Source of the DNA: Bacteroidota bacterium
GTDB lineage: Bacteria; Bacteroidota; Bacteroidia; UBA7662; JAYUJN01
Assembly: GCA_043765195.1 (NCBI GenBank)
Contig: JAYUJN010000055.1
Location: 1,041 to 65,040 of the forward strand
Direction of reading: 5' to 3'
Length of the DNA: 64,000 nt
Shown here one piece after another: positions 25,392 through 43,035 of the stretch. Under the pieces are notes generated by a model. The model did not search any database. It was not told the origin of the DNA and saw only the letters and a list, made by a program, of their open reading frames with translations. How positions within the stretch are numbered: the first letter of the stretch is position 1; every line of letters begins with the position of its first letter. The translations under genes were made by a program, and so were the position numbers.

Positions 25392-25529
25392 ATGCTTTGG
25401 GTGTATAAAGTGGTTTTTTGGGTGGCATATTGCTTTTTGGGCATAAACCGTTGCTGGTAATTAAATTATCCATTGTAAAGGTATGAAAAAATGCTTAATT
25501 TTGCAAAAATATTAGAGCAATACAACCCA

Positions 25530-28343
25530 ATGCAAGACGAAGTTATAGAAATTTTTGGCGCAAGAGAACATAATTTAAAAAACATAGATTTAACCATACC
25601 ACGCAATAAATTGGTGGTTTTTACGGGCATGAGTGGCAGCGGCAAGTCTTCGCTTGCCTTCGACACGCTTTTTGCGGAGGGGCAGCGCAGGTATATGGAG
25701 AGTTTTTCGGCGTATGCACGGCAGTTTATAGGCAATTTGCAGCGACCAGATGTAGATAAAATAGAGGGACTTAGCCCCGTGATTTCGATAGAGCAAAAAA
25801 CCACCAACCGCAACCCACGCTCTACGGTGGGTACAGTTACCGAAATTTACGATTTTTTGCGCTTGCTTTTTGCCCGAATTGGTACGGCGCACAGCTATGT
25901 AACTGGCTTGCCGATGGTAAAAATGAGCGAAGACCAAATCCTTCGCCAAATTTTTGAGCAATACGCTGACAAAAAAATAGCCATACTTGCACCGCTTATC
26001 AGAGCCAGAAAAGGGCATTATCGGGAGCTTTTTGAGCAAATACGCAAGCAAGGCTACCTAAAAGTGCGTGTAGATGGCGAAATGCTCGACCTTAGTGAGC
26101 GCATACAACTGGACCGCTACAAAACCCACGACATAGAAGTGGTGATAGACCGTGTGGAAATAACCGAAGACAATAGAACCCGCCTAAGCCAGAGCATTGC
26201 TACGGCACTAAAAACGGGCAAAGGCACGATTCAGCTCATGGATTTGGAGAGCGCAAAAACGGCTTTTTTCAGCAGCCTGCTCATGTGTGTGGAGAGCGGC
26301 ATTGCGTACGACGAGCCGCAGCCCAATAGTTTTTCGTTTAACTCGCCCTACGGCGCTTGCCCACACTGCGACGGCTTGGGTAGTATGCCCTCCGTTTCCA
26401 TAGATACCATAATACCCGACCCAAGCCTAAGCATAAAAGACGGCGGTATAGCGGCTTTTGGCGAGTACAGAGACGTGTGGACGTACAGAATTATAGATAT
26501 TTTGGCAAAAAAGTACAAGTTTAGCACCAGCGTACCTATAAAAGACTTGTCGGAAAATGTAAAAAAAATGCTTTTTGAAGGCACGGCGGATTACAACTCT
26601 AACCTGTCTTTTTCGGAAAACTACGACCAAAAAGCCTTTGAGGGCATTAGAGCCATGCTCATTCGCTACTACAAAAGCCCCGATGCCGAGTACCTAAGCC
26701 GCTGGGCGGAGCAGTTTGTGCAGCAAGACCCTTGCCCTGAGTGCGCTGGCGCAAGGCTTAAAAAGGAGTCGCTTTATTTTCTCATTGCCCAAAAAAACAT
26801 AGCCGAGCTTACCCAAATGGACTTGATAGAGTTGCAGGCTTGGTTTGAGGCATTGCCCCAAAAACTAAAAAAACGAGAATTGAGCATCGCCCAAGAAATT
26901 GTGAAAGAAATAGTGGAGCGCTCGGGTTTTTTGAACAACATTGGGCTTACGTACCTAAGCCTGAGCCGAGGCTCAAAGACCCTTTCTGGCGGCGAAAGCC
27001 AGCGCATTCGGTTGGCTACGCAAATAGGCTCGCAGCTCACGGGCGTGCTTTATATACTGGACGAACCCAGCATTGGGCTGCACCAGCGGGACAACCAGCG
27101 GCTCATACAATCGCTGAAAAACCTGCGGGACATAGGCAACTCGGTGATTGTGGTGGAGCATGACAAGGACATGATTTTGCAAAGTGATTTTGTGGTGGAT
27201 ATTGGTCCGGGGGCGGGTAAGTTTGGCGGGCAAATTGTATCCATAGGTACGCCCGAGCAGTTTGCGCACAGCCACACCATTACCGCCGACTACTTAAACG
27301 GTACACGAAGTATAGCCGTGCCAGAGGCTCGTAGGCAGGGCAATGGGTTGTACCTGACCCTAAATGGCTGCACGGGCAACAACCTAAAAAAACTAAGTAT
27401 TGCTTTTCCGCTCGGGAAATTTATATGCGTTACGGGCGTTTCGGGCAGCGGAAAATCCACGCTCATAAACGAAACATTGTACCCAATACTAAGCCAGCAT
27501 TTTTATAGAAGCAAGCAAAAACCGCTGGCGTACCAAAGCATTGTGGGCTTGGAAAACGTGGATAAGGTAATAGAAATAGACCAAAGCCCGATAGGGCGCA
27601 CGCCACGGAGTAATCCTGCTACTTATACGGGCGTTTTTACGAACATTCGCAGCTTGTACGCCGAGCTGCCCGAAGCCAAAATTAGGGGATATGCCGCAGG
27701 GCGGTTTTCGTTTAATGTGCGTGGCGGTAGGTGCGAAACCTGCGGCGGCGGCGGTATGCGCATTATAGAAATGAATTTTATGCCCGATGTGGAGGTAGTG
27801 TGCGAAACTTGCAACGGAAAAAGGTATAACCGAGAAACGCTCGAGGTGCGGTTTAAAGGAAAAAGCATCAATGACGTGTTGAACATGAGCATAGACGAAG
27901 GCGTGCTGTTTTTTGAGAACCAACCCGCCATTTTGCGCCGCATAAAAACCTTGCAAGACGTGGGGCTGGGCTACATAACGATAGGGCAAAGCTCGACCAC
28001 GCTGTCGGGGGGCGAGGCGCAACGGGTAAAACTGGCTACGGAACTAAGCAAAAGAGACACTGGAAAAACTTTTTATATACTGGACGAACCCACCACGGGT
28101 TTGCATTTTGAGGACGTGAAAGTGCTGCTGGGCGTGCTGCAAAAACTCGCCGACCGAGGCAATACCGTACTCGTAATAGAGCATAACCTCGATGTAATAA
28201 AGGTGGCAGACCATATTATAGACATTGGTTTGGAGGGCGGCAGAAACGGCGGCACGCTGCTTTACGAAGGCACGCCCGAGCTGATGCTCAACCACCAGCA
28301 CAGCCACACAGCTACTTACCTAAAAGTGGAAATGGAGGCGTAG
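25530..28343 (+). CDS. uvrA: Excinuclease ABC subunit A
   Basis: GAREHNLKN, two Walker A motifs (GMSGSGKS, GVSGSGKS), LSGGE twice, zinc fingers. Confidence 0.98.
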   Translation: MQDEVIEIFGAREHNLKNIDLTIPRNKLVVFTGMSGSGKSSLAFDTLFAEGQRRYMESFSAYARQFIGNLQRPDVDKIEGLSPVISIEQKTTNRNPRSTVGTVTEIYDFLRLLFARIGTAHSYVTGLPMVKMSEDQILRQIFEQYADKKIAILAPLIRARKGHYRELFEQIRKQGYLKVRVDGEMLDLSERIQLDRYKTHDIEVVIDRVEITEDNRTRLSQSIATALKTGKGTIQLMDLESAKTAFFSSLLMCVESGIAYDEPQPNSFSFNSPYGACPHCDGLGSMPSVSIDTIIPDPSLSIKDGGIAAFGEYRDVWTYRIIDILAKKYKFSTSVPIKDLSENVKKMLFEGTADYNSNLSFSENYDQKAFEGIRAMLIRYYKSPDAEYLSRWAEQFVQQDPCPECAGARLKKESLYFLIAQKNIAELTQMDLIELQAWFEALPQKLKKRELSIAQEIVKEIVERSGFLNNIGLTYLSLSRGSKTLSGGESQRIRLATQIGSQLTGVLYILDEPSIGLHQRDNQRLIQSLKNLRDIGNSVIVVEHDKDMILQSDFVVDIGPGAGKFGGQIVSIGTPEQFAHSHTITADYLNGTRSIAVPEARRQGNGLYLTLNGCTGNNLKKLSIAFPLGKFICVTGVSGSGKSTLINETLYPILSQHFYRSKQKPLAYQSIVGLENVDKVIEIDQSPIGRTPRSNPATYTGVFTNIRSLYAELPEAKIRGYAAGRFSFNVRGGRCETCGGGGMRIIEMNFMPDVEVVCETCNGKRYNRETLEVRFKGKSINDVLNMSIDEGVLFFENQPAILRRIKTLQDVGLGYITIGQSSTTLSGGEAQRVKLATELSKRDTGKTFYILDEPTTGLHFEDVKVLLGVLQKLADRGNTVLVIEHNLDVIKVADHIIDIGLEGGRNGGTLLYEGTPELMLNHQHSHTATYLKVEMEA

Positions 28344-28672: not shown

Positions 28673-29308
28673 TTACAAATTCGGCTGGGGCGTAGTGCGC
28701 AGGTAAGGCTTTATTTTTGTATGCCCTTTCGGAAACTTCTGGGCGATGTCCTCATCTTTCACAGCCATTGTAATAATTACATCGTCGCCGTGCTGCCAGT
28801 CGGCGGGCGTGGCTACCGAGTAGTTTGCGGTGAGTTGTAGCGAGTCTATGACCCTAAGCAGCTCATCGAAGTTGCGCCCTGTGGAGGCTGGGTAGGTGAG
28901 CATCAGCTTAATTTTTTTGTCGGGCGCAATAATAAACACGCTGCGCACCGTCATGTTGTCCAGCGCATTGGGGTGAATCATGTCGTAGAGGTTGGCTATG
29001 CTCTTGTCAGCGTCGGCTATCAGCGGAAAAGTTACCTCCGTGCCTTGGGTTTCGTTTATATCGCTAATCCAAGCGTGGTGTTTTATGAGTTCATCTACAC
29101 TTATGGCAATCATTTTTACGTTGCGCTTCGCAAAATCTTGGGTTCTTTTGGCTGCTGCGCCCAGCTCGGTGGTGCAAACGGGTGTATAATCCGCAGGGTG
29201 CGAAAAAAATATTACCCAGCCGTCGCCAGCCCATTCATGAAAATCTATTTCGCCGATGGTGGTTTGTGCCGTAAAATTGGGTGCGGTGTCGCCAAGTCGT
29301 AGGGTCAT
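28673..29308 (-). CDS. 1-Cys peroxiredoxin (Prx6 family)
   Basis: FSHPADYTPVCTTE, YPASTGRNFDE, ATPADW. Confidence 0.95.
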   Translation of the reverse strand: MTLRLGDTAPNFTAQTTIGEIDFHEWAGDGWVIFFSHPADYTPVCTTELGAAAKRTQDFAKRNVKMIAISVDELIKHHAWISDINETQGTEVTFPLIADADKSIANLYDMIHPNALDNMTVRSVFIIAPDKKIKLMLTYPASTGRNFDELLRVIDSLQLTANYSVATPADWQHGDDVIITMAVKDEDIAQKFPKGHTKIKPYLRTTPQPNL

Positions 29309-29523: not shown

Positions 29524-29562
29524 ATAGTACCTTGCAATGCAAAGTACTATACGATACCTTTG
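29524..29562 (+). promoter_or_regulatory. Palindromic operator overlapping the padR promoter (-7 box TACCTTTG)
   Basis: ATAGTACCTTGCA-A-TGCAAAGTACTAT near-perfect inverted repeat at 29524-29550, followed by a TAnnTTTG box at 29555-29562. Confidence 0.7.
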
Positions 29563-29588
29563 TGCCATCATTAAACAAAAAACACCAA

Positions 29589-29951
29589 ATGAATGTAGAA
29601 AACACCTCAGTTCAGATGCGAAAGGGCTTTTTGGAGTACTGTATTTTGCTGGCGATACAGCAGGGCGGCGAGGTATATACCTCCGACCTGATAGACCAAC
29701 TAAAACAAGCCGAAATAATAGTGGTGGAGGGTACGCTGTATCCGCTACTGAGCCGCTTGCACAAATCGGGTACGCTGGAGTATAGCTGGCAAGAGTCCAA
29801 TGCGGGTCCGCCACGCAAGTATTACCGCTTGGCGCAGCCCGAGGGCGCTCATTTTTTGAAAGAACTCGACGAAACTTGGGCGAGCTTGGCGGCATCGGTA
29901 CAAAAACTTTTAAACAACCAAACAAACTCTAAACTAAAAAACGATGAATAA
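29589..29951 (+). CDS. PadR family transcriptional regulator
   Basis: QMRKGFLEYCIL, EGTLYPLLSRL, GPPRKYY; start moved to ATG 29589. Confidence 0.93.
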   Translation: MNVENTSVQMRKGFLEYCILLAIQQGGEVYTSDLIDQLKQAEIIVVEGTLYPLLSRLHKSGTLEYSWQESNAGPPRKYYRLAQPEGAHFLKELDETWASLAASVQKLLNNQTNSKLKNDE

Positions 29952-31764
29952 AACGGTATCTATAAACCTTGCGGGCATGGTTTTTAGCATTGACGAAAAT
30001 GCTTACATCGCCCTAAATACGTACATCAACGAAATACGCAAAATATTTGTGGGCTACACCGATGGCAACGAAATAGTAACGGATATTGAAGCTCGGATAG
30101 CTGAAAAATTTCGGCTTGCGCTCACCCAGCAGCAAAAAGAGGCGGTTTCGCTCGCCGATTTGGAGCGTGTGCAGGCGGAGCTGGGTAGCACCCAAGATTT
30201 TGCGCAAGATGCCCACGAAAACCTCGAGCAAAGCAAACCCAGTGCGCCCGCCCAACCCATTGTGGTTCAGAAGTTTAGCCGCAGCGCCAACCAAAAAATT
30301 GTGGGCGGCGTGGCTATGGGTTTGGCGCACTATTTGCGTATCGACCCCGTGATAGTCCGCATTTTATGGCTCGTGAGCATCGCTTTGGGTGGCGTGGGCG
30401 TGCTTGCTTACCTCATTTTGTGGGTGCTGCTGCCCGTGGCGCAGCTACCAGAGTTTGTGCATTCGGCGCACAGCAAGCGGTTTTTTAGAAACAAAGAAGC
30501 CCGAAAAATAGCGGGCGTAGCCGCAGGCATTTCCACTTATTTTGGCATAGATGTGTTGTTTGTGCGCATTTTGTTTGTACTCGGCGTTTTGGGGGCGGGC
30601 GTGGGTTTGGTGGCTTACGTGGTTATTTGGGCGAGTGCCGCCTACGCCCACACCCTGAGCCAGCGCACGCTCATGCACGGCACCCAAGCCAACCTATCCA
30701 ATATGTACGCCACACGCCAAAACCAGCTACAAAACCCCAGCCAACCCAACGTTTTTATAGAAATAATTGAGCGCAGTTTTGCCGTATTTTTTCGGGTATT
30801 AAAAATGATTTTGGGCGCATTGCTGCTGCTAAAAAGCATGGCTTTGTTTCTATTGTCCTTTGTTTTTGTGGGCTTTGCATCTATGATTTATTGGCGCAAT
30901 GGCGATTTTTCGGGCATACCGCTGCGCAATTTTGCGGGCAGCCTCACCAACGATTTGGGGCTACAAACCCTCATTGTGCTGGCATTTGTATTGCCTGCTA
31001 TCTTGTTGGTTTACATGGGTTTACGCCTTTTGTTGGGTTATCGTTTGTTTGGCAAGCAAGCCATAAAAACGCTTGCTTTTGCCTGCATAGCCGTACTGGC
31101 TACGGCATTTGTGTTTGGGTTTAGCCTGTTTTCTAATTTTGTAGAAACGGCTCGCTACCAAAAAATACAAACCATAACATTGCCCGATACCACACGGCTG
31201 TTGGAGCTGGAAATGAGCGATTTTTACACCAACAATATGCAGCACTACGACAATTTTGACATTACGCTGCACGCCCACAACCAGCCCAGTATTCTGGTAA
31301 AAAAATCGTTTGAGGCACAGGGTGCAAACCAAGCCGATGCCCAAAAAAATGCACAGGCAGCCATTTACAACCTCGAGTTGCAGGGCAATAAACTGGTATT
31401 TGACAACAAAATAAAATTTGAGAAAAACGCCATTTTTCGTTTTCAAAGGGCAAAAATAGACATTTATTTGCCACAAAACATGGTTGTAAAAATCAATAAT
31501 TTTTATAAATTTCACCTCTCAAACCCAAATTTTTGGTACGATAACTGGCAGTATGGCTTTCATGACTATGATTTTGAAGGCAAAAAATACAAAATAGTAA
31601 ACGATACCATAAAATGCCAAAACTGCGATGATTTGCTGCAAAACCCCAAATATTGGCAGAACGAAAACCGTGGCTATTCGCCCAATGATAGTTCGTGGAG
31701 TGAAGCGGAAACAGACGAAATGAACGAGCAAAAAGCAGTTTTGAAAAATTATTTGACCAATTAA
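29944..31764 (+). CDS. PspC domain membrane protein
   Basis: MNKTVSINLAG...IDENAY...DIEARIAE; two PspC repeats (KIVGGVAMGLAHY, KIAGVAAGISTYFG). Confidence 0.9.
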   Translation: MNKTVSINLAGMVFSIDENAYIALNTYINEIRKIFVGYTDGNEIVTDIEARIAEKFRLALTQQQKEAVSLADLERVQAELGSTQDFAQDAHENLEQSKPSAPAQPIVVQKFSRSANQKIVGGVAMGLAHYLRIDPVIVRILWLVSIALGGVGVLAYLILWVLLPVAQLPEFVHSAHSKRFFRNKEARKIAGVAAGISTYFGIDVLFVRILFVLGVLGAGVGLVAYVVIWASAAYAHTLSQRTLMHGTQANLSNMYATRQNQLQNPSQPNVFIEIIERSFAVFFRVLKMILGALLLLKSMALFLLSFVFVGFASMIYWRNGDFSGIPLRNFAGSLTNDLGLQTLIVLAFVLPAILLVYMGLRLLLGYRLFGKQAIKTLAFACIAVLATAFVFGFSLFSNFVETARYQKIQTITLPDTTRLLELEMSDFYTNNMQHYDNFDITLHAHNQPSILVKKSFEAQGANQADAQKNAQAAIYNLELQGNKLVFDNKIKFEKNAIFRFQRAKIDIYLPQNMVVKINNFYKFHLSNPNFWYDNWQYGFHDYDFEGKKYKIVNDTIKCQNCDDLLQNPKYWQNENRGYSPNDSSWSEAETDEMNEQKAVLKNYLTN

Positions 31765-31798
31765 ATGCCTAAAATTGCGGTAAAAAAGCCCTCTAATT

Positions 31799-31913
31799 CC
31801 TCACTTTTATGTTAATTATTACCCAAAACCTACCACTTAACACGGAAAACACGTTCTTTATCCCGGTTTTGGGTTTTGCTATTGCATAGTATTTATTGGT
31901 TGCATAACTTTGT
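31799..31913 (+). promoter_or_regulatory. Promoter module copy 1: 21-bp-periodic repeats plus TTG/TAACTTTG promoter
   Basis: About 95% identical to 32310-32424; imperfect repeats end at 31824, 31845 and 31866; -7 box TAACTTTG at 31905-31912. Confidence 0.8.
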
Positions 31914-31916
31914 ACC

Positions 31917-32080
31917 CGTGAACGAAATAACATCGTGTGTGATGTTGAAAGCATATAGCACTTGAAAGCAAATGCTATATCTACTTAAATGTGCGTGTCG
32001 TGTGTGGTGCGCCGTTGTGTAAGAAAGTAAATGCCATTAGGTATTGAAAACTCCCAAGTTTCGGCTTGGGAGTTTTGTTT
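31917..32080 (+). ncRNA. Candidate small RNA 1 (about 160 nt)
   Basis: Bounded by a promoter and an intrinsic terminator; three internal hairpins; no ORF over 16 aa lies wholly inside it. Transcription is inferred, not shown. Confidence 0.5.
32047..32080 (+). terminator. Intrinsic terminator of unit 1
   Basis: AAAACTCCCAAGT-TTCG-GCTTGGGAGTTTT followed by GTTT. Confidence 0.8.
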
Positions 32081-32099
32081 TGTAGAGCGTGGAGTGCAG

Positions 32100-32240
32100 C
32101 CGAAGTGGCTCGTTTCGGCTACGCTCAACGACCATGAATTAGAACGAATAAAAAACCCACGTTCGTTGAGCGTAGCCGAAACGGACAATGGGTGTTGAAT
32201 GGAATAATCCTGTGCATTTTTTAATCCTAAAAATCCTGTG
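32100..32240. repeat. REP-like inverted pair plus AATCCT repeats
   Basis: CGTTTCGGCTACGCTCAACGA (about 32112) and inverted TCGTTGAGCGTAGCCGAAACG (about 32163); AATCCTGT and AATCCTAAAAATCCTGT. Confidence 0.8.
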
Positions 32241-32309
32241 GAGACAAGAAAAATACCAAAAAATGAGCCGCTAATTTTGGACTTTTTGTTAAAAAAAAGC
32301 ACCCCGACC

Positions 32310-32424
32310 CCTCGCTTTTTTGTTAATTCTTACGCAAAACCTACCACTTAACACGGAAAACACGTTCTTTATCCCGGTTTTGGGTTTTGCTATTGCACAG
32401 TATTTTTTGGTTGCATAACTTTGT
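32310..32424 (+). promoter_or_regulatory. Promoter module copy 2
   Basis: Direct repeat of 31799-31913 (offset 511 bp, 6 mismatches in 115 bp). Confidence 0.8.
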
Positions 32425-32427
32425 GGT

Positions 32428-32532
32428 GTTGAAAACAACAAGTAGTGTGTAATTATAATGCTATGAAAAAAACACAATGCCATGCTATATTTGGTATTAC
32501 AAACTCCCAGATTTCGATTTGGGAGTTTTCTT
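32428..32532 (+). ncRNA. Candidate small RNA 2 or terminated leader of the kinase operon (about 100 nt)
   Basis: Shares TGTTGAAA, GTGTGT and ATGCYAT motifs with unit 1 and ends in a homologous hairpin AAACTCCCAGAT-TTCG-ATTTGGGAGTTTT (32501-32529). Confidence 0.45.
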
Positions 32533-32543
32533 ATACTTTACCC

Positions 32544-35500
32544 ATGAAGCCAGTTTACATACTTATTTACCTTATACTTTGGGCTAGCCAAGCAGGTGCC
32601 CAGCAGCTTGCCCACCGCCGATACACCACCGCCGAGGGGCTGCCCCAAATGCAGGTAATGGACGTGGCGCAAGACCAAAACGATGTTTTGTGGATAGGTA
32701 CAAAAAACGGACTGTGTACCTTCGATGGCGTTTCGTTTTACAACAAATTAGGCGGCGAAAAAAAGGAAATTTATGCAGTTTTGGTAAGTAAAAAACGGGA
32801 AGTCTTCGCCTTTTATACCTACCAAACCAAGTTAGAGGTTTACGAAAACTACAAGCTCAACCCAAACTACATAACGAATAAAGAAGTACTAACCAAGTAC
32901 AACTTGATAGAAAATCCTTTTTTGGCGGGCGATACTGTATGGCTTACACTCGTTAGCAAACCAACCTTAGAAGAAGACAAAGCCCAAAATGAAAAAACCA
33001 GAGTATCTACCATTGCTTTTTTGCTCAACCATAAAATTACGATTTTGCCCAAAACCAAAATCGTTGCCCCAAACGGAGAATACACGTCCGCTGCCGTAAC
33101 CAACAATACCTTATACCTCAGTAGCGCGGGCTTCGGCATTTTTAGGTTTAATGCCCAAACCCAAACCCTGCAAAATATATATAAATTTAGCCCAAGTGAA
33201 AAAATAAATGGCTGTAATGCTATAAAAGCCACAGACGATGGCAACATTTATTTGACATCGAATAAGTACGTAGCCAAACTTGTAAATGGGCGCATTTTTT
33301 ATTTAGATAGCGGCGAAATAGGCAATAAACTCATCTATTTAAAAGAAAAAAAACAGCTCCTGTATTTCAAAAAAATAGGCGAGCGCACCCAGCAGCTCAT
33401 AACCATGAATACCCAAGGCGTGCGCCTAAGTACCCTGAATATAGACATAAATTTGCCCTACGGCGTAATCATAGACAAAGAAGGCAACTACTGGATAGCC
33501 AGCGAAGAGGGTTTGGTGCAACTTATAAAAAACGGTTTTACCAATTTTTATGAAAAAGACGGTATGCCCCCCAAAATATGGCAGATAATAGAAGACAAAA
33601 AGCAAAATATGTGGTTTGCGCCCTACGAAATGCGCAACGGTATATGCAAATACGATGACCAAACCCTAAAAAGGTACTATGTACCCAAAGCAACCACAAA
33701 GGCAAACTACTTTTATTTTGCAGGATATTGCACCCCAAAAAACGAGCTTATGTTTACCACCGATGGGGGTTTGTTGTCGTTTACCGAAAAAAATGGGTTT
33801 AAAGAAGATTTTAATAAAAGCCTGATTTTTAATACCTATGAAAGTGCCACAACCAAAGATGTATTTATAGGTGCCTGGGACAATAAAGGGTTTTATTTCA
33901 AAAAAAACAACACCAACCAATGGCAGCAATACAAAATACCACGCATGAAAAACGTGGTGGGTGCTACCCAAGACAAAGACCAAAATTATTGGTTTGGGGG
34001 CTTTGGTGGCATCGGCGTATTTGATGGCAAAAGCACTTTTAGCATTTGCGCCTACGACAGCACACATAGCCACCTGCGGGGTATGTGCTACACCACCGAC
34101 CACAAGGGCAATGTGTGGATAGGCAGCGATACCCACGGTTTTTTGATGTATGATGCCAACCGTTATCCGTTTAAAATGGCGGATAGTTCGCTGGTAGCCA
34201 AGCGGATACAAATGGTAAACGACAGCAATTATTTAAGCAACATCATTACTGCCATAAAATACTACGCCACGCCCAAAGACACTTTTTTGCTTTTTGGGCA
34301 CTCGCAGGGCTTTGGTATGTTCGACCTGGCGCACTGGTACAAAACCAAGCAAATACGCATTCAGTTTTTTGACGATGCCAATGGTTTTATGGGGCATGAA
34401 GTGGAGCAAAATGCGATAACCGTGGATTCTAAAAACCGCATTTGGATAGCCACCAACGACTTGCTTACGCTGTTTGATTTTCCGAAATATAGAAAAAATG
34501 ACGTTGTGCCAAACATTTACATCAAGCAACTTGTGTATTTTGATGGTAAATTAAAGCCAAACACGCTTTTTGACAACAATATTTACCAAAAACAGCCCAG
34601 CCAAGAACTGGTACTGAAACCAAGCCAAAACAACATACAAATTAGTTTTATAGGCATAAGCACCACTGCGCCCACACGAGTGCAGTACAGCTACCGATTG
34701 ATGGGCAGCAACGCCTCGTGGAGCGTGTGGAACACGGATACCAAGGCTACGTTTACCAATCTTGCTGCGGGCGATTATCGGTTTGAGGTGCGCAGCATAA
34801 ACAGCGAAACGCCGCTCGAGTTAGCCGACAAACAAATGGTGAGCCTCACGTTTCGGGTGGAGCAAATTTGGTACAAATCGTGGTGGTTTTTACTCTTGTG
34901 CGCATTGTTTGCTGGGAGTGTTATCGTTTTTATAACCCAACTTTTAGCCAAGCGCAAAAGGGCTGAAATACTCACCGAACTTAGGCTAAAAGAGGGCGAG
35001 CTGGTGCGCAGCCAGAGCAGTGAGCAGATTTCTAAAATGCAGTTTCAGATGCTCATAACCCAGCTCAATCCGCATTTTATAAACAACGTACTTACGGGCA
35101 TACAAAACAAAGTATTCCACGAAACGGAGTCATTTGTGGCAATTAGCTACCTCGCCAAACTTATAAGGAGTTTGTTTATGGAAAGTAGGTCTGGAAAAAT
35201 GGTTTGGTCGTTGGCAGAAGAAATGGATTTTTTGCAGCATTATTTAGACCTGCAAAAATTTAGGTTTCCAAGTAATTTTGAATATACGCTGCCTATCAAA
35301 GCCGAATTAGCCGCATTTGAGCGCATAAAAATACCCATTATGTACCTACAAATCCACTGCGAAAATTCCATAGAACATGGTATAAAAGCCGTGCCAGATG
35401 GCAAGCTGATGGGCAAACTTATTGTAAGTGTAGCTCAGGTAAACCAAAGCCAAATAGCCATAACCATAACCGACAACGGCGTGGGTAGAACCGAAGCAAG

Positions 35501-35672
35501 CCAAAAAAACAGCCGCAGCACCAAGCAAGGCACAGCGATGCTTAGTGAGGTTTCGGATATATTTAACAAAAATAACAACAACAACCTGCTTAACTTTACC
35601 TACCAAGATGCGCCGCAGGGCGGCGGTACCACGGTTACGGTGTTTGTACCCACGCATTACAAATACGACTAA
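32544..35672 (+). CDS. LytS-type sensor histidine kinase with periplasmic beta-propeller and YYY domains
   Basis: Signal peptide, YTTAEGLP and QDQNDVLWIGT propeller repeats, FTNLAAGDYRFEV (YYY), TM helix, QLNPHFINNVL, ENSIEHG, DNGVG. Confidence 0.9.
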   Translation: MKPVYILIYLILWASQAGAQQLAHRRYTTAEGLPQMQVMDVAQDQNDVLWIGTKNGLCTFDGVSFYNKLGGEKKEIYAVLVSKKREVFAFYTYQTKLEVYENYKLNPNYITNKEVLTKYNLIENPFLAGDTVWLTLVSKPTLEEDKAQNEKTRVSTIAFLLNHKITILPKTKIVAPNGEYTSAAVTNNTLYLSSAGFGIFRFNAQTQTLQNIYKFSPSEKINGCNAIKATDDGNIYLTSNKYVAKLVNGRIFYLDSGEIGNKLIYLKEKKQLLYFKKIGERTQQLITMNTQGVRLSTLNIDINLPYGVIIDKEGNYWIASEEGLVQLIKNGFTNFYEKDGMPPKIWQIIEDKKQNMWFAPYEMRNGICKYDDQTLKRYYVPKATTKANYFYFAGYCTPKNELMFTTDGGLLSFTEKNGFKEDFNKSLIFNTYESATTKDVFIGAWDNKGFYFKKNNTNQWQQYKIPRMKNVVGATQDKDQNYWFGGFGGIGVFDGKSTFSICAYDSTHSHLRGMCYTTDHKGNVWIGSDTHGFLMYDANRYPFKMADSSLVAKRIQMVNDSNYLSNIITAIKYYATPKDTFLLFGHSQGFGMFDLAHWYKTKQIRIQFFDDANGFMGHEVEQNAITVDSKNRIWIATNDLLTLFDFPKYRKNDVVPNIYIKQLVYFDGKLKPNTLFDNNIYQKQPSQELVLKPSQNNIQISFIGISTTAPTRVQYSYRLMGSNASWSVWNTDTKATFTNLAAGDYRFEVRSINSETPLELADKQMVSLTFRVEQIWYKSWWFLLLCALFAGSVIVFITQLLAKRKRAEILTELRLKEGELVRSQSSEQISKMQFQMLITQLNPHFINNVLTGIQNKVFHETESFVAISYLAKLIRSLFMESRSGKMVWSLAEEMDFLQHYLDLQKFRFPSNFEYTLPIKAELAAFERIKIPIMYLQIHCENSIEHGIKAVPDGKLMGKLIVSVAQVNQSQIAITITDNGVGRTEASQKNSRSTKQGTAMLSEVSDIFNKNNNNNLLNFTYQDAPQGGGTTVTVFVPTHYKYD

Positions 35673-35683
35673 CCATACGCACC

Positions 35684-36547
35684 ATGCAAAAAATAACCTG
35701 CCTCATTGTAGAAGATGAAATAAACGATAGAGAGCTGCTGGAGAAATGCCTGCACTTTTTTCATGAGCGGCTCACCGTTTTGCCCACCAAGCCCACCACC
35801 GTAAACGACGCGGTAGAAGCCATTTTGGCGCACAGCCCCGATGTGGTTTTTGCGGATATTCGGCTACAAGGCGGCGATTATTTTGATGTGTTGGAGGTGC
35901 TAAAAAAACAAAATGTGGTGGTAGCCAGCGTACTTTTTACGGCTTATAGAAGCGATATGGCGGAATACGCCCAAAAATACACCAACAACTACACCGAGTA
36001 CATAAAAGCCATTACCTACAAACCCATAGCGCACAATTGGAAGGAGGAATATGCCGCTTTTTTGGATAAAATAGCGCAGGAAAAACCCAAAAAGGACGTT
36101 CAAAATCAGTTTATAAAAATAAGCGATCTAAAACTCCGCATAGATGATATATACTACATCGCTACCAACGACACCAAAAAAAACAGCCTTACGTTTTATG
36201 TTTTGCCCAACACGCTACCAAATACAGTGAGGCAAAAAAATGCCGCACAGGGTATAGTTACCCTAAATGCAACGCTTACAGAATGGTTGAAAGTGCATAC
36301 AAACGAGCAATTTATACGAATTAGTAGGGATAGGGCTATAAACTCGGATAAAATAGTGTCGGTAATATCAAAGCCTGAAACGGAAGGCGGTGGTTTTACG
36401 GTGGTTTTTGGGTATAAAAACAATAGGGGCGAAAACTCGTCGTTTCCTGTAAGCCGTAATTTTGTAGCGGAAATAAAGGCTTTTTTGAAGGGAAAGGGAG
36501 TGGGTTTAACTAAAAAAATTGAGTTTGGCGATGACCAAAATGGATAG
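35684..36547 (+). CDS. LytR/AlgR (LytTR) family response regulator
   Basis: IVEDE...VVFADIRL receiver; IDDIYYI...FIRISRDRAIN...PVSRN LytTR domain. Confidence 0.85.
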   Translation: MQKITCLIVEDEINDRELLEKCLHFFHERLTVLPTKPTTVNDAVEAILAHSPDVVFADIRLQGGDYFDVLEVLKKQNVVVASVLFTAYRSDMAEYAQKYTNNYTEYIKAITYKPIAHNWKEEYAAFLDKIAQEKPKKDVQNQFIKISDLKLRIDDIYYIATNDTKKNSLTFYVLPNTLPNTVRQKNAAQGIVTLNATLTEWLKVHTNEQFIRISRDRAINSDKIVSVISKPETEGGGFTVVFGYKNNRGENSSFPVSRNFVAEIKAFLKGKGVGLTKKIEFGDDQNG

Positions 36548-37300: not shown

Positions 37301-37614
37301 TTGGGTGGATTATCGTTTTGTGGGTTGTATAAGGCGTAAAATAAAAAACATCATTTGGGCGGATTATGGTTTTGTGGCTATCACTTTTTGAAGATTATAC
37401 CAATTATAAGTCATGAGTAGTCTTTTTTTGCGAATTTTGCATTTTCACTGTCCGTCTGGGCAAATTGCATTTGCCCTCACCAGCATTCGCCCTATATCAC
37501 ATTTGCACATCATCTAATTACAGGCGAATGCAATTCGCCCTTACATTTTCACTGTCCGTCGGGGCAAATTGGGCAGATTATCGTTTGACGGCTATCATTT
37601 TTTGGAGTTCGTAC
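37283..37614. repeat. Duplicated uvrB-3'/tauE-5' junctions with REP-like palindromes
   Basis: 41-bp repeat at 37283-37323 and 37337-37377; 37355-37400 matches the uvrB end 37569-37614 at 36 of 46 positions; ATTTTCACTGTCCGTCnGGGCAAATT occurs twice; GGCGAATGCAATTCGCC palindrome. Confidence 0.8.
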
Positions 37615-39620
37615 ATTTCGTCTCGCAGGCGTGCTGCCTCCAAAAAGTCGAGGTTTTTTGCCGCAGTTTCCATCGTTTTTTTGGTTTCTTTCATTAGTTT
37701 CGTCAGTTGGTCGGCGCTCATGTACTGCACTATGGGGTCGGCGGCTATGGCGGTGCTTAGTTCGGGTTCGGTGTAGTATTTCACTTTTACTACCTCTGGC
37801 GTTTTTTCGGCTCTAATGTCCAGCACGGAGGTCTGTGCCAAAATTTCCTCTCGGGTTTTAATAATTCCTCTGGGCGTTATGTTGTGCAGCTCGTTGTACT
37901 CGAGTTGTTTTATGCGCCTGCGGTTGGTTTCGTCTATGGTTTTGCGCATCGACTCCGTAATTTTATTGGCGTACATAATTACCTTTCCGTTTACGTTGCG
38001 TGCCGCCCTACCTGCGGTTTGGGTTAGGCTACGCTCCGAGCGTAAAAAACCCTCTTTGTCCGCATCGAGTATGGCTACCAGCGAAACTTCGGGCAAATCC
38101 AAGCCCTCACGCAGCAGGTTTACGCCTATCAGCACATCAAACTCGCCGAGGCGCAAATCCCTAAGAATTTCCACCCGCTCCAGCGTATCCACATCGGAGT
38201 GTATGTAGCGGCATTTAAACCCAAGTTGTATCATGTAGCTGCTCAGTTCCTCCGCCATGCGCTTGGTCAGGGTCGTTACCAAAATCCGCTCTCCCGCCTC
38301 TATGCGCAGGTTCGCCTCGTGCAGCAGGTCATCTACTTGCGTGGCTACGGGGCGCACTTCTATGGGCGGGTCCAGCAAACCCGTGGGGCGTATCACTTGC
38401 TCCACCACAATGCCCTCGGCTTTTTGTAGCTCGTAGTCGGCGGGCGTGGCGCTCACATAAACGGCTTGTTTTACCAGGTCTTCAAACTCATGAAACATCA
38501 GCGGACGGTTGTCCATCGCCGACGGCAGTCGGAAACCGTTTTTTATCAACGCTATTTTTCGGGAGCGGTCGCCCCCATACATCGCCCGTATTTGCGGCAC
38601 CGATACGTGGCTTTCGTCCACCACAAGCAAAAAATCGTCGGGGAAATAATCCAGCAAACAATAGGGGCGAGTGCCTTCTTTGCGCCCGTCCAAATACCGA
38701 GAATAATTCTCTATCCCCGAGCAATAACCCAGCTCACGCATCATTTCTATGTCAAAATTCACACGCTGCTCCAGCCGCTGGCTTTCCACTATCATCGTTT
38801 CTTGGTTAAAATAAGCCGTTTGCTTACCCAAGTCGTCTTGTATGTTGATAATGGCATTGTTCAGCGTATCTTGGCTGGTAACGTACATATTGGCAGGAAA
38901 AATGGCTATGTGGCTGTGCCTATCATACACCTTGCCCGAAATGGGGTCTATCGTTTCCAGGCTTTCTACCTCATTGCCAAAAAAAACAATGCGGTAGCCA
39001 TAGTCGGCATACGCCAAAAAAACATCTACCGTATCGCCATTTACCCGAAAACTACCCCTCGTAAACTCCGTGGTGGTGCGGGAGTACAAATTGTCCACCA
39101 ATCCGTACAAAAAAGCCTGCCTGCCCATGTTGTCGCCCACTTTTATGCGCAGTATTTTGTCGGAGTATTCGGCTGGGTTGCCCATGCCATATATACACGA
39201 AACCGATGCCACCACTATCACATCTCGCCGCCCGCTCATGAGGCTCATGGTGGTGCGCAGCCGCAGTTTTTCTATTTCGGCGTTTATAGCCATTTCTTTT
39301 TCTATAAATGTACCCGTGCTTTCTATAAATGCCTCGGGCTGGTAATAGTCGTAGTAGCTCACAAAATACTCCACGGCGCTCTCTGGAAAAAACTGCTTAA
39401 ACTCGCCATAAAGCTGCGAAACCAGCGTTTTGTTGTGCGTGAGTACCAGCACGGGTTTTTGCACCTGCTCTATCACGTTCGACATCGTAAATGTTTTTCC
39501 GCTGCCCGTTACGCCCAGCAGCACCTGGTTTTTTTCGCCATTTTGTATGCCCGCCACCAGCTCCGCTATGGCAGTAGGCTGGTCGCCAGTGGGTACAAAC
39601 TCACTCCTAAGTTTAAACAT
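37578..39620 (-). CDS. uvrB: Excinuclease ABC subunit B
   Basis: PTGDQP, GVTGSGKT, YFVSYYDYYQPEA, DESH, QTAGRAARN, C-terminal UVR domain. Confidence 0.98.
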   Translation of the reverse strand: MFKLRSEFVPTGDQPTAIAELVAGIQNGEKNQVLLGVTGSGKTFTMSNVIEQVQKPVLVLTHNKTLVSQLYGEFKQFFPESAVEYFVSYYDYYQPEAFIESTGTFIEKEMAINAEIEKLRLRTTMSLMSGRRDVIVVASVSCIYGMGNPAEYSDKILRIKVGDNMGRQAFLYGLVDNLYSRTTTEFTRGSFRVNGDTVDVFLAYADYGYRIVFFGNEVESLETIDPISGKVYDRHSHIAIFPANMYVTSQDTLNNAIINIQDDLGKQTAYFNQETMIVESQRLEQRVNFDIEMMRELGYCSGIENYSRYLDGRKEGTRPYCLLDYFPDDFLLVVDESHVSVPQIRAMYGGDRSRKIALIKNGFRLPSAMDNRPLMFHEFEDLVKQAVYVSATPADYELQKAEGIVVEQVIRPTGLLDPPIEVRPVATQVDDLLHEANLRIEAGERILVTTLTKRMAEELSSYMIQLGFKCRYIHSDVDTLERVEILRDLRLGEFDVLIGVNLLREGLDLPEVSLVAILDADKEGFLRSERSLTQTAGRAARNVNGKVIMYANKITESMRKTIDETNRRRIKQLEYNELHNITPRGIIKTREEILAQTSVLDIRAEKTPEVVKVKYYTEPELSTAIAADPIVQYMSADQLTKLMKETKKTMETAAKNLDFLEAARLRDEMYELQKMIAVKR

Positions 39621-40053
39621 TGCGCAATTTTTTTATGGTTTACCAACCCTTTAAAACACCAATATTTTATTTTTAGTTTAATTCGCTGTCATTATTTTCA
39701 TGGTAATGTTTTTGAAAAACAACTAAAATTAGGCGCAAGTTCGCAAAACAGCTCAAAACGCATAAATTGAAAAAATGGCTATTTTGGGTGTTAATTTAGT
39801 TCAAAGTAGAAGTTATTTATAGTTAAATCGTTGATTTTTAAAAAAATTAATTATTTTTATATTCTTTTAACTATTTAAAAGTGAGATAGATACAAATTAA
39901 ATTTTTTTCATTTCGTTTAATGCGTTCATTTTGTCGATGAATTTATTTTGTAGTCTCAGAAAAAAGCGCGAAACTTGTTGTACGAAATACACAAAATTTG
40001 TGTTTTTTGTACAAAAACTAAATATTTACAATCTTTATTTAACCAATTCTCAG

Positions 40054-43035
40054 ATGATGAAAAACGTACACAATTTACGCAGAGCCATTTATTTGGTGGC
40101 TGTGCTTGCTGGCTGTTGTGGCTGGCAAAACGCATTTGCGCAAGGCACGCCGCCGCTCTTTGGTGGTCGCACGCCAACTTCCCACTCGAATTTCTTTTTT
40201 ATTCGTGGTCAATACAATGGCTTTACTGGCGATGACTATTCATTTGTAGGTTCTACCTGCGATGGTGGCGTATCGGGTGTAACCATTTTAGCCACTGCGG
40301 CAGCGAATGGCAACCAATTTTTGATACACAACGACAACAACAAAAACAACGGATTTGGCAACAAATGGGGTGCTGCAAACGTGCCTTTTGGCGTACCTGC
40401 CAATGCAGCCCATCAGTTCGGACCAAACTCCAACATGGCGAGTGCTTTTGTAGCTGGTAGCTATTACAGCTTCCGTGCTACTTACAAAGCGTTTACAGGC
40501 AATAGAATAGCTGTACACAGTACTACTTTTAAACCTACGCAGTTTACGCACGTATCAGCCATAGACGGCAAGGTGGTAGGCTGCTTAGACAAAGCACCAG
40601 CCGCAGTTGAGTATTTGTATTTGCGCTATTCTACCAATGGTGGAACGTCATACACTACTGTGCCTATCGTGCCAGCAGGCGTAGCAGGCACCACAGGTGC
40701 CGATGCACGTTGTTTTACCATTACGGTTCCAGCTGTAAGCTACACTTTTTATGTAATGAACTCTACCTTAGCCACCGTAGCAGCCGTAAACGCTGCCCCA
40801 GCCGCCGATGTAGATTTATACTCATTAAACGACTACGGAACTGATGTAAATGGTTCTGGTGTTACTGGGGGTAATGCAAATGCAGATTGTAACAAACTAT
40901 CTAACTTTCGTACACGCACCAACATAAAAGCAGTATGCGTACCAGAAGGTGGCTACGACGTAACCCTTACCGACAATGCAACGATAGACGGTTGTAAATA
41001 TCAGTTGGCTAAAGAATCTGACTTTGCTACACCCCTAAACGACCCAACCGCAAGTACTACGCAGTCGGATTTTACGGGCGAATCTTCGGCATTTACTTAT
41101 TATACTGATGCAGCATTTGCTTACGGCGACAATGCAAACCGTACCAACTGGAACAATCCTACAAGCACGCAAGCCGACATCAAAAACCTTTCTGTTTCTT
41201 GGGACAATACCTACCTTTATTTATTAACCGAAGGCAACACCAACTGGAACAACGCTGGTGCCAATGGCGATATAATGGACTTGTTTATACTCATAGATAC
41301 CGACAACGACAAAGCAGCCACGGCTTATACCACGGGTACGAATGTAGCCAATACATCTTTGCCTTACAACAAGCGTGTGGACTGTAATGGTTGGAGACCA
41401 AACTATGTGGTAGCCATAGAAAAAGACGATGTAGGCGGCGGTGATTACGCCTCGCTACACAGCGTGGGTGCAGGCGCACCTGTGCTAAAAGACGATACGG
41501 ACGATACCGCCGAACGTGCCTGCGATTTTGACTACCGTCAGGTAGATGCTAAAATAGAGGTACGTGTGCCTTGGAGTGCCATCGGTGGCGCACCCAGTGC
41601 CATAAACGGACAAACCATGAACTTTGCGATGTACACCACCTACGATGCCGACGGCTACGATACCTACGACTCGGCACCAGGTTTGGGGCAGGGACACGGC
41701 AAGCCGTTTGAGCAAATAGGCGACACACCTTGGGACGGCGACCACTGGGGCGGACACGTGGACCCAGTAACGGGTACAAACGATGCCACAAGTACAGCAC
41801 AATATGGCGAGTCGTACAACGCCGACCCTTTTGATGCAGTAACCAACGACCAAGGACCAGGCGACAACCAATCTAACAGCCAAAACGGTCGCCAACCTAG
41901 CTCGGACAGAACTGCCCTAAATGGCACAGATGCAGCCGACTTTGATACCATAGAAGAATATTGGAGCATAAAAAATGTGGGACAAATAAGCTCGGAGGTA
42001 GCCTGTGTTACCTTGCCTGATGGCGGTGCCGCCGTAACTATAGCTTGTACAGCACCATTGCCTTCACAAAAAGTAGGCACTGCTCTTTTGGCTGGCTCTG
42101 GTTGTTTGGTGGACGACAATCCTTATACCGCAGCCTATGACCCTTATGCTACGGCAGCGCAAACTTTGGCTTTTAGAACACAATTAAATGCCACAGCATT
42201 TGTAACTGCTGGTGGTGCTATATCTTACACAAGCGGTGGCGGTTTGTGCAAAGAGCAAGTAATCATTACGGCTGCTGATGTAGAAACTGGTCGTACTTTT
42301 AGTGCAGTTGGTTGCTCTGCTTGTGCTGGATTAAAAGAAATAGTAACTCGTACTTATACCCTTACCCACGTAGATAAAATAGTTACCAACGTACCTTGCT
42401 CGCCAGTAACCAAAGCAAATAAAGTTACTACTTGCGTGCAAACATTTACACGTACTCCTGACGGTGCCAACTGTGCTTTGCCTGTAAACTTGTTGTTTTT
42501 TGATGCAGACCTAAAAGGCAATGATGTATTGCTTACTTGGACTACTTCAAGCGAGCAAAACGCCGATAAATTTAACGTACAACGCAGCATAGATGGCGAT
42601 AATTTTGAGACCATAGGCAGCGTGAAAGCCGCAGGAAACAGCAACATACGCAAAAACTACAACTTTACCGATGCCAACATCAACCAAAACATGGGTAGGA
42701 TTTATTACAGAATCCAAAGCGTGGACTTGGACGGTAGAAGCAAAGTTTGGGACATTCGCACCGTGAAACTACGTGCCGACGTTTACACCCTAAACATAGT
42801 GCCTAACCCTGCACAAGATGTGGTAAGAATTAGCGTAGCAGCGTTGGTAAGTGCCAACACGCAGCTAAACATATACAACATCATGGGGCAATCGGTGTAT
42901 AGCCAAAACTTTACGCCTGCTGCCAACACACCGAATAACTTTGAAGTGGATTTGAGCGCATACAGCAAAGGCATATACCAAGTTGTGGTTAGGTCTGGTA
43001 GCAACATCGCTTCTCAAAAACTGATAGTGAAGTAA
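40054..43035 (+). CDS. T9SS-secreted protein with a DOMON/CBM9-like central domain
   Basis: Signal peptide; DIKNLSVSWDNTYLY...ILIDTD...IEVRVPWSAIG; LPVNLLFF...WTTSSEQN...YYRI Ig domain; CTD IVPNP...KGIYQV...QKLIVK. Confidence 0.8.
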   Translation: MMKNVHNLRRAIYLVAVLAGCCGWQNAFAQGTPPLFGGRTPTSHSNFFFIRGQYNGFTGDDYSFVGSTCDGGVSGVTILATAAANGNQFLIHNDNNKNNGFGNKWGAANVPFGVPANAAHQFGPNSNMASAFVAGSYYSFRATYKAFTGNRIAVHSTTFKPTQFTHVSAIDGKVVGCLDKAPAAVEYLYLRYSTNGGTSYTTVPIVPAGVAGTTGADARCFTITVPAVSYTFYVMNSTLATVAAVNAAPAADVDLYSLNDYGTDVNGSGVTGGNANADCNKLSNFRTRTNIKAVCVPEGGYDVTLTDNATIDGCKYQLAKESDFATPLNDPTASTTQSDFTGESSAFTYYTDAAFAYGDNANRTNWNNPTSTQADIKNLSVSWDNTYLYLLTEGNTNWNNAGANGDIMDLFILIDTDNDKAATAYTTGTNVANTSLPYNKRVDCNGWRPNYVVAIEKDDVGGGDYASLHSVGAGAPVLKDDTDDTAERACDFDYRQVDAKIEVRVPWSAIGGAPSAINGQTMNFAMYTTYDADGYDTYDSAPGLGQGHGKPFEQIGDTPWDGDHWGGHVDPVTGTNDATSTAQYGESYNADPFDAVTNDQGPGDNQSNSQNGRQPSSDRTALNGTDAADFDTIEEYWSIKNVGQISSEVACVTLPDGGAAVTIACTAPLPSQKVGTALLAGSGCLVDDNPYTAAYDPYATAAQTLAFRTQLNATAFVTAGGAISYTSGGGLCKEQVIITAADVETGRTFSAVGCSACAGLKEIVTRTYTLTHVDKIVTNVPCSPVTKANKVTTCVQTFTRTPDGANCALPVNLLFFDADLKGNDVLLTWTTSSEQNADKFNVQRSIDGDNFETIGSVKAAGNSNIRKNYNFTDANINQNMGRIYYRIQSVDLDGRSKVWDIRTVKLRADVYTLNIVPNPAQDVVRISVAALVSANTQLNIYNIMGQSVYSQNFTPAANTPNNFEVDLSAYSKGIYQVVVRSGSNIASQKLIVK

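Follow-up and report, generated by a model that had tools for sequence, protein, structure and literature searches.

A repeated promoter module beside a Bacteroidota LytS/LytTR two-component operon precedes two candidate sister RNAs and a secreted-protein gene

Introduction

It is established for Firmicutes that a response regulator with a LytTR DNA-binding domain can act for the most part via regulatory RNAs, as in the case of RNAIII, of VR-RNA, VirT, and VirU, and of SpoZ. The critical G residues of the RgaR repeats are located at -72 and -51 (PMC10602386), the proximal centre of the AgrA repeats lies near -60 (PMC4227749), and a study of VirR places the 50-bp core of the VirR boxes just upstream of the -35 element (PMC2838878). 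Here we analyse a locus of an uncultured Bacteroidota bacterium (assembly GCA_043765195.1) that has no close relative in the genome collections searched. The locus is part of a 64,000-nucleotide (nt) stretch of contig JAYUJN010000055.1, hereafter called the window. Two nearly identical promoter modules, P1 and P2, each precede a short unit with its own terminator, and the second unit directly adjoins an operon encoding a LytS-type sensor kinase and a LytTR response regulator. A third copy of the module, P3, is located on another contig, upstream of a gene for a small secreted protein.

Bacteroidota commonly carry LytTR regulators and LytS kinases of the propeller type, and the link from two-component systems to RNA regulation has been little studied in this phylum. 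The original prediction, made from the letters of the window, interpreted the locus as tandem sibling small RNA (sRNA) cassettes driven by the adjacent pair, and its author knew of no described Bacteroidota equivalent. A full-text literature search, with supplements and subscription journals outside its scope, likewise found none: it returned no report on LytTR regulators together with small RNAs in Bacteroidota, or on the targets of Bacteroidota LytTR regulators or propeller LytS kinases.

Results

A promoter module present in three copies

The 115-bp segments 31799-31913 and 32310-32424 are identical at 109 positions, in agreement with the predicted identity of about 95%, and the repeat extends beyond them to the limits of P1 and P2 given in Table 1, over which 120 of 132 bases are identical. 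Both modules close with the sequence TAACTTTG (31905-31912 in P1, 32416-32423 in P2), which is present in P3 too. A TTG is located 20 nt upstream of TAACTTTG in both P1 and P2 (31882-31884 in P1), as had been claimed. We take this TTG to be the -33 element of the Bacteroidota sigma-A promoter, in which a -7 box of the form TAnnTTTG is combined with a TTG about 20 nt upstream. In a study of Flavobacterium, the consensus TAnnTTTG of the sigma-A -7 box occupies positions -12 to -5 (PMC9723704). The geometry of the -7 box would place the transcription starts near 31917 +/- 2 and 32428 +/- 2.

P3 is located on contig C1 (1760-1866, minus strand) and is 84% identical over 107 nt; the flanks of the three copies are unrelated to each other. 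The 45 nt at 31835-31879 are the same in P1 and P2 throughout, and P3 matches 43 of them. A 41-nt core (~31836-31878, at about -81 to -39) does not vary between the three copies. Scanning the genome with the 45-nt core, with up to 14 of the 45 positions mismatched, identified exactly three sites, which are P1, P2, and P3. Half-sites are not definable from three near-identical copies of the module. Looser half-site patterns yielded no additional sites in the same genome, and one permissive pattern had 48 matches, only two of which are known copies. With only three copies, the module is not a dispersed repeat, as the original prediction had presupposed, and since the third copy precedes a protein gene, it is best read as the promoter of a very small regulon. 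It behaves like a regulated promoter that is portable and not private to the RNA units, and we consider it very probable that a regulated promoter is shared by the three units. Open reading frames (ORFs) of 53 and 64 amino acids (aa) that run through the modules on the minus strand were rejected as genes, because an ATG start is missing from the frame in P3 and none of the codon positions varies in the core.

The distance from P3 to the gene of the secreted protein is about 35 nt to the first ATG and 90 nt to the ATG of the second methionine, which is the likely true start. No two-component gene is linked to P3. The protein family is rare, with 17 proteins in a set of 5.8 billion, which are 37-79% identical to the query when its own entry is excluded, and it is absent from 400 further sampled genomes of the class. 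The homologues P0002-P0006 of the P3 protein, with identities of 60-79%, are encoded on contigs of up to 82 kb. Its members are small and secreted, and share invariant cysteines and the invariant motifs CCS, WGG, SWTG, and DSGGF-GC-C. Neither a Pfam family nor a usable Atlas match was found for the protein. Its AlphaFold model (predicted local distance difference test score, pLDDT, 77) contains one long helix packed on a four-stranded sheet, and a search with the model against the PDB gave no match at E <= 0.001.

Two short units with homologous terminators

Each of the modules P1 and P2 is followed by a short unit, of ~165 nt and ~107 nt, respectively, close to the claimed lengths of about 160 and 100 nt. 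Terminator T1 of unit 1 (32047-32076) has 13 base pairs and a TTCG loop and is followed by a U-tract; terminator T2 of unit 2 (32501-32528) has 12 base pairs and also a TTCG loop. At both sites a G+C-containing stem-loop is followed by a U-run, as in intrinsic terminators, and they are the only two terminator-like sites in 31500-32800, where shuffled sequences averaged 1.2. Over a 44-nt terminator segment, 36 bases are identical between T1 and T2. Among the 12 stem pairs that T1 and T2 share, a single pair differs in both bases (G-C to A-U) and two more differ in one base each; all three changed pairs still pair, which bears out the claim of homologous terminators with pairing-preserving stem differences around the loop. 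A 6-bp hairpin directly before each terminator is also kept (32030-32045 in unit 1, 32476-32498 in unit 2). The stem of T2 ends 15 nt before the kinase ATG at 32544, where a gap of about 14 nt had been stated.

The bodies of the units are ~60-65% alike, compared with 95% for the promoters, so the claimed excess of divergence in the bodies is real. Unit 2 aligns best, at ~65% identity, to the 3' 100 nt of unit 1, and unit 1 therefore looks internally duplicated. The sequence TCGTGTGTG is present in two copies in unit 1 and occurs 12 times genome-wide on both strands. Both units have stable predicted folds, with z-scores of -5.2 for unit 1 and -3.1 for unit 2, and none of 200 shuffled sequences folded as well. 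In each of the two TCGTGTGTG copies of unit 1, the hexamer GUGUGU forms the 6-nt loop of a hairpin (31929-31946 and 31993-32012), in which its probability of being unpaired is ~0.9. The units lie outside the known Rfam families, as foreseen: no family reached its gathering score, the best match was HrrF with 32.2 bits against 77, and all six matches with E up to 10 were below the cut-off. The units are probably short non-coding transcripts.

The sequence TATATTTG at 32486-32493, inside unit 2, also fits the -7 box consensus, and the corresponding start would fall at the foot of T2. The motif is missing at the corresponding place in unit 1. It was rejected as a bypass promoter for the kinase, because the transcript would keep the whole terminator and there is no TTG at the -33 distance.

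The kinase-regulator operon

The adjacent LytS/LytTR pair named by the original prediction is recovered with Pfam. The kinase consists of a signal peptide, Reg_prop beta-propeller repeats, a Y_Y_Y domain, a LytS-type His_kinase domain, and HATPase_c. The regulator scores 30.8 bits for Response_reg (cut-off 30.2) and 29.9 bits for LytTR (cut-off 22.6), and its likeness to the BtsR and LytR models is weak, far below their cut-offs. A longer kinase frame, starting from GTG 32445 or ATG 32463, was rejected, because homologues start with a signal peptide like that at 32544 and a variant strain has a 1-nt deletion inside the extension.

The space between the end of T2 and the kinase ATG is too short for a promoter of the operon's own. 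Therefore, the operon should be transcribed only through T2, barring an unrecognised start in unit 2. The conserved block at about -81 to -39 is located directly upstream of the -33 element in all three promoters, in the region that VirR boxes and AgrA repeats occupy in their promoters. The GG of CGGAAAAC and the GG of CGGTTTTG are 21 bp apart, at about -73/-72 and -52/-51. The same genome encodes a paralogous kinase-regulator pair on contig C46 that is preceded by a simple promoter and lacks the module; this speaks mildly for the adjacent pair as the source of the regulator of the module. On balance, the adjacent LytTR regulator is slightly favoured as the activator of the module, judging from its position and from the arrangement of the putative operator.

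Table 1 Features of the locus and its surroundings (positions in the window unless stated otherwise).
Feature	Position	Strand	Basis or remark
Promoter/operator module P1	31782-31913	+	Repeat comparison, -7 box
Unit 1, predicted non-coding RNA, ~165 nt	31917-32084	+	Terminator search, folding
Dispersed repeat between the cassettes, like a repetitive extragenic palindrome (REP) or miniature inverted-repeat transposable element (MITE)	32092-32247		Genome comparison, read depth
Promoter/operator module P2	32293-32424	+	Repeat comparison, -7 box
Unit 2, predicted RNA of ~107 nt and 5' leader of the kinase operon	32428-32536	+	Terminator search, folding, alignment
Sensor histidine kinase, 1042 aa	32544-35672	+	Pfam domains, homologue N-termini
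Response regulator, 287 aa, REC and LytTR DNA-binding domain	35684-36547	+	Pfam
Small secreted protein, gene predicted to be driven by P3	L003:925-1473 (G000:C1), outside the window	-	
uvrA	25491-28343	+	Within 12 kb of uvrB, on one side of the locus
1-Cys peroxiredoxin-like gene	28673-29308	-	
PadR-like regulator ORF	29532-29951		Upstream of the PspC gene
PspC-domain protein, 606 aa (PspC, LiaI-LiaF-TM, ToastRack)	29944-31764		
uvrB	37578-39620	-	Within 12 kb of uvrA, on the other side of the locus
1034-aa protein with a type IX secretion system (T9SS) C-terminal sorting domain	39931-43035		

Variant strain and the spacer between the cassettes

A variant strain that is ~10% divergent co-occurs in the same DNA runs (31656-32470; runs X1, X3, and X4). 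Among the differences listed, 13 fall in 31722-31809 and none in 31810-31851, which does no more than hint that the core is constrained. P1 of the variant strain carries the P2 state at positions 31803 and 31809, and this may reflect gene conversion between the modules.

The REP-like spacer contains a hairpin at 32111-32183 with 26-nt inverted arms. Within the genome it gave 93 high-scoring segment pairs in 24 contigs, of which 55 lie no more than 1.5 kb from a contig end, and its depth in public runs is 50-100x that of the flanks. The many copies typical of a dispersed repeat or MITE are thus a property of the spacer and not of the promoter module with its three copies. One X4 contig skips 109 nt of the spacer (32096 to 32206). 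Another copy of the repeat is present ~120 nt upstream of P3 on contig C1.

Search for the layout in other genomes

The collection searched contains no family-level relative of this genome, and the absence of the layout elsewhere therefore says little about its real distribution; relatives are present in the protein set. When the 779-nt region was compared with the DNA of 60 relatives, only the REP-like spacer was found, in three genomes; the module and the units were found in none. A covariance model of the shared 3' domain, built from two sequences, recovered its own two copies and no hit in the 60 relatives. A 19-mer of the core had four matches in the genome collection (Desulfobacterales, Pseudomonas), and about four were estimated by chance. 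Homologues of the kinase (E <= 1e-30) are encoded in 133 of 301 sampled genomes of the class, a tally that includes one unpublished genome (G125). No orthologue was found in 300 genomes of the class, where the best identities were 25-34%, and a metagenome scan with the kinase returned two loci at 21-28% identity and no close relative.

Neighbouring genes

The cassettes lie between the PadR/PspC gene pair and the two-component operon. No terminator-like site was found between the stop of the PspC-domain gene (31764) and P1, and transcripts of this gene may also end at T1.

Discussion

A proposed circuit

Based on the repeats, promoter boxes, terminators, folds, third module copy, and domain content, all of which were computed directly, a circuit can be proposed in which transcription, the identity of the activator, read-through, and action in trans are what we infer. 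One activator, most likely the LytTR regulator encoded downstream, would switch on all three module copies (~107-132 nt) by binding to the invariant block at about -81 to -39, just upstream of the Bacteroidota sigma-A promoter. P1 would give rise to a separate RNA of ~165 nt, highly structured and terminated at T1, and P2 to a sister RNA of ~107 nt terminated at T2, 15 nt ahead of the kinase start. There is no room for a promoter of the operon's own, and therefore read-through of T2 would feed the kinase-regulator operon, presumably resulting in attenuated positive autoregulation. P3, on another contig, would drive the small secreted cysteine-containing protein. The complete scheme of a three-promoter regulon with one activator, two sister RNAs, a secreted protein, and T2 read-through is proposed tentatively, as possible rather than probable. 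The idea that the output of the pair is two sRNAs holds in so far as the module precedes two sRNA-like units, but the output is not only sRNAs, since a secreted-protein gene belongs to the same promoter set.

The two RNAs may act in trans by base pairing of GUGUGU with C/A-rich stretches of mRNAs; judged from the predicted loops, this has just short of an even chance. Sibling sRNAs with repeated seed motifs in hairpin loops are known, and G/U-rich seeds of the GcvB type pair with C/A-rich mRNA leaders. Bacteroidota are said to lack both Hfq and ProQ. CACACAC occurs 13 times at -40..-1 of crude ORF starts, compared with 3-7 times in neighbouring 40-nt bins (~2-4x), an enrichment that may reflect only the A/C-rich make-up of leaders. 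More generally, the C/A repeats CACACAC and ACACAC are about twice or more as frequent there as in the neighbouring bins. When both units were scanned for RNA duplexes with 2251 crude gene starts, the duplexes were long and unrealistic, and the P3 gene, the kinase, and the regulator ranked at fractions of 0.12-0.89, so that the scan was uninformative about targets.

We speculate, as a quite improbable extension, that the locus is a Bacteroidota circuit without a described counterpart. The LytS/LytTR pair would have only three direct outputs; the sister GUGUGU-loop RNAs would act on mRNAs that have C/A-rich leaders, either silencing or activating them; one of the RNAs would double as a terminator-gated leader that makes autoinduction conditional; and the secreted protein would be a possible cue for the propeller, closing a quorum-sensing-like loop.

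Several observations weigh against the proposed circuit. The single GUGUGU of unit 2 (32445-32450) is predicted to be mostly paired, with an unpaired probability of 0.22. The variant strain has five deletions of 1-2 nt at 32435-32466, in the 5' half of unit 2; together with the ~60-65% likeness of the bodies, this indicates that the sequences of the RNA bodies are little constrained, which is as compatible with a leader as with an sRNA. No RNA run containing 31300-33300 is on record, and the four public datasets that contain this region are all sets of DNA contigs from a single study. Homologous cassettes were not found elsewhere, so that there is no covariation beyond the two sequences. The expected recurrence of the layout upstream of homologous kinases failed: none of 29 distant homologues has a hairpin-plus-T site within 100 nt of its assigned start, with one such site at 370 nt (22 of these loci have the full 450 nt upstream, and by eye ~17 have a credible start with a signal-peptide-like sequence), nor does the paralogue on C46 have a terminator next to its start. 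The three imperfect repeats with a 21-bp period claimed for the module are the weakest part of the observation: a self-match at offset 21 over 31805-31880 is present (40%), but z is only 2.2 against 1000 shuffles, uncorrected for 35 offsets, and lies below the z of 3.5 at offset 7 over the same segment (1000 shuffles). The genome, which is 82.6% complete, encodes four LytTR regulators, three LytS-type kinases, and many other regulators. The link between the regulator and the module consists of adjacency and binding-site geometry, and geometry is not proof.

Alternative explanations

The main rival is a leader that acts only in cis. Unit 2 would be the leader of the kinase operon with an attenuator, unit 1 a duplicate cut off by insertion of the REP-like repeat, and neither would function in trans. 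Such a leader accounts for the position of T2, 15 nt before the kinase ATG with no room for another promoter, for bodies that evolve fast while promoter and terminator are kept, and for a dispersed repeat exactly between the copies. It is harder to reconcile with the units themselves, where no anti-terminator pairing was seen for either terminator arm and neither body contains GGGAG or CTCCC. Furthermore, unit 1 has an intact terminator with a compensatory change, the stronger fold of the two (z -5.2), and a gained second GUGUGU-loop hairpin, which is unexpected for a decaying copy. We regard a leader with a duplicated copy as rather unlikely, though a serious competitor. Alternatively, the RNAs could be real and the module bound by one of the other three LytTR proteins or by an unrelated factor, without autoregulation. 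The four LytTR ORFs of the genome, the lack of a two-component gene linked to P3, and conservation over ~107 nt, more than one dimer site needs, are compatible with another regulator. We nevertheless consider this decidedly unlikely, because the kinase-regulator operon has no promoter other than P2 available to it, and on C46 the paralogous pair is preceded by a simple promoter of its own, without the module.

Regulated promoter, short gene, kinase, and regulator, in this order, form the classical layout of peptide signalling in Firmicutes, and the units could accordingly encode small peptides, as in pheromone-type LytTR circuits with a short precursor gene before the kinase (for Agr, see PMC10602386). 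The plus-strand ORFs of note encode 16 aa at 31972-32022 in unit 1 and 21 aa at 32482-32547 in unit 2, and both begin with MLYL. The TGA stop of the 21-codon ORF overlaps the kinase ATG (ATGA), a placement that would permit translational coupling. Peptides from the short units are unlikely all the same, because the two sequences have only MLYL, their first four residues, in common, the ORF of unit 2 runs through the conserved T2 hairpin, and a 4-nt deletion (at 31984) in the variant strain shifts the frame of the ORF of unit 1. In addition, no AgrB-like processing protein (PF04647) was found in this incomplete genome, and we rate the pheromone-type circuit as very improbable. The two cassettes could also stem from a segmental duplication that is recent and has no function of its own, or from an assembly artefact; the genome is a 59-contig metagenome assembly, and no single public contig spans the whole stretch. 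Recent copies, however, would have bodies as alike as their promoters, whereas the values are ~60-65% and 95%. The third copy, at 84% identity, keeps the invariant core, the flanks are unique to each copy, and in three runs the module has ~2-5x the depth of its flanks, which a multi-copy segment would be expected to show. Duplication or artefact is therefore an extremely unlikely explanation.

Significance

The locus is a compact regulon with three promoters, an invariant operator-like block, two candidate sRNAs with a candidate seed, and a terminator in the path of the operon. If the proposed circuit is correct, the design in which a LytTR regulator acts through regulatory RNAs would extend from Firmicutes to Bacteroidota, and the conserved block would define a site to which a Bacteroidota LytTR protein binds.

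Comparison with known systems

The locus resembles the VirS/VirR system of Clostridium perfringens, with its RNAs VR-RNA, VirT, and VirU, in having a LytTR-type regulator, few promoters, and a conserved block just upstream of the -35 region; the VirR target set also mixes regulatory RNA genes with secreted-protein genes (PMC2838878). It differs from VirS/VirR in phylum and in the type of sigma-A promoter, and its kinase combines a large propeller sensor in the periplasm with a LytS-type His_kinase domain. The candidate RNAs described here are predicted tandem siblings directly before the kinase gene; their sequence relation to the VirR-regulated RNAs was compared through Rfam only.

In AgrCA/RNAIII of Staphylococcus aureus and RgaS-RgaR/SpoZ of Clostridioides difficile, a LytTR regulator binds to two direct repeats upstream of the promoter and a regulatory RNA is a main output (PMC4227749, PMC10602386). 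The two-component operon of agr is activated by its own regulator, as proposed here, and the critical G residues of the RgaR sites, 21 bp apart, are spaced similarly to the GG pairs in the module. In contrast to these systems, no AgrB was found in the genome and no credible AgrD-like peptide at the locus, and two sibling candidate RNAs are present instead of one. RNA and operon run in the same direction and are linked via a terminator, instead of being divergent. With sibling sRNAs, including those of the GcvB type, the units share the features of paralogous short RNAs, a common terminator domain, and a short repeated loop motif, which in this Bacteroidota locus are predicted.

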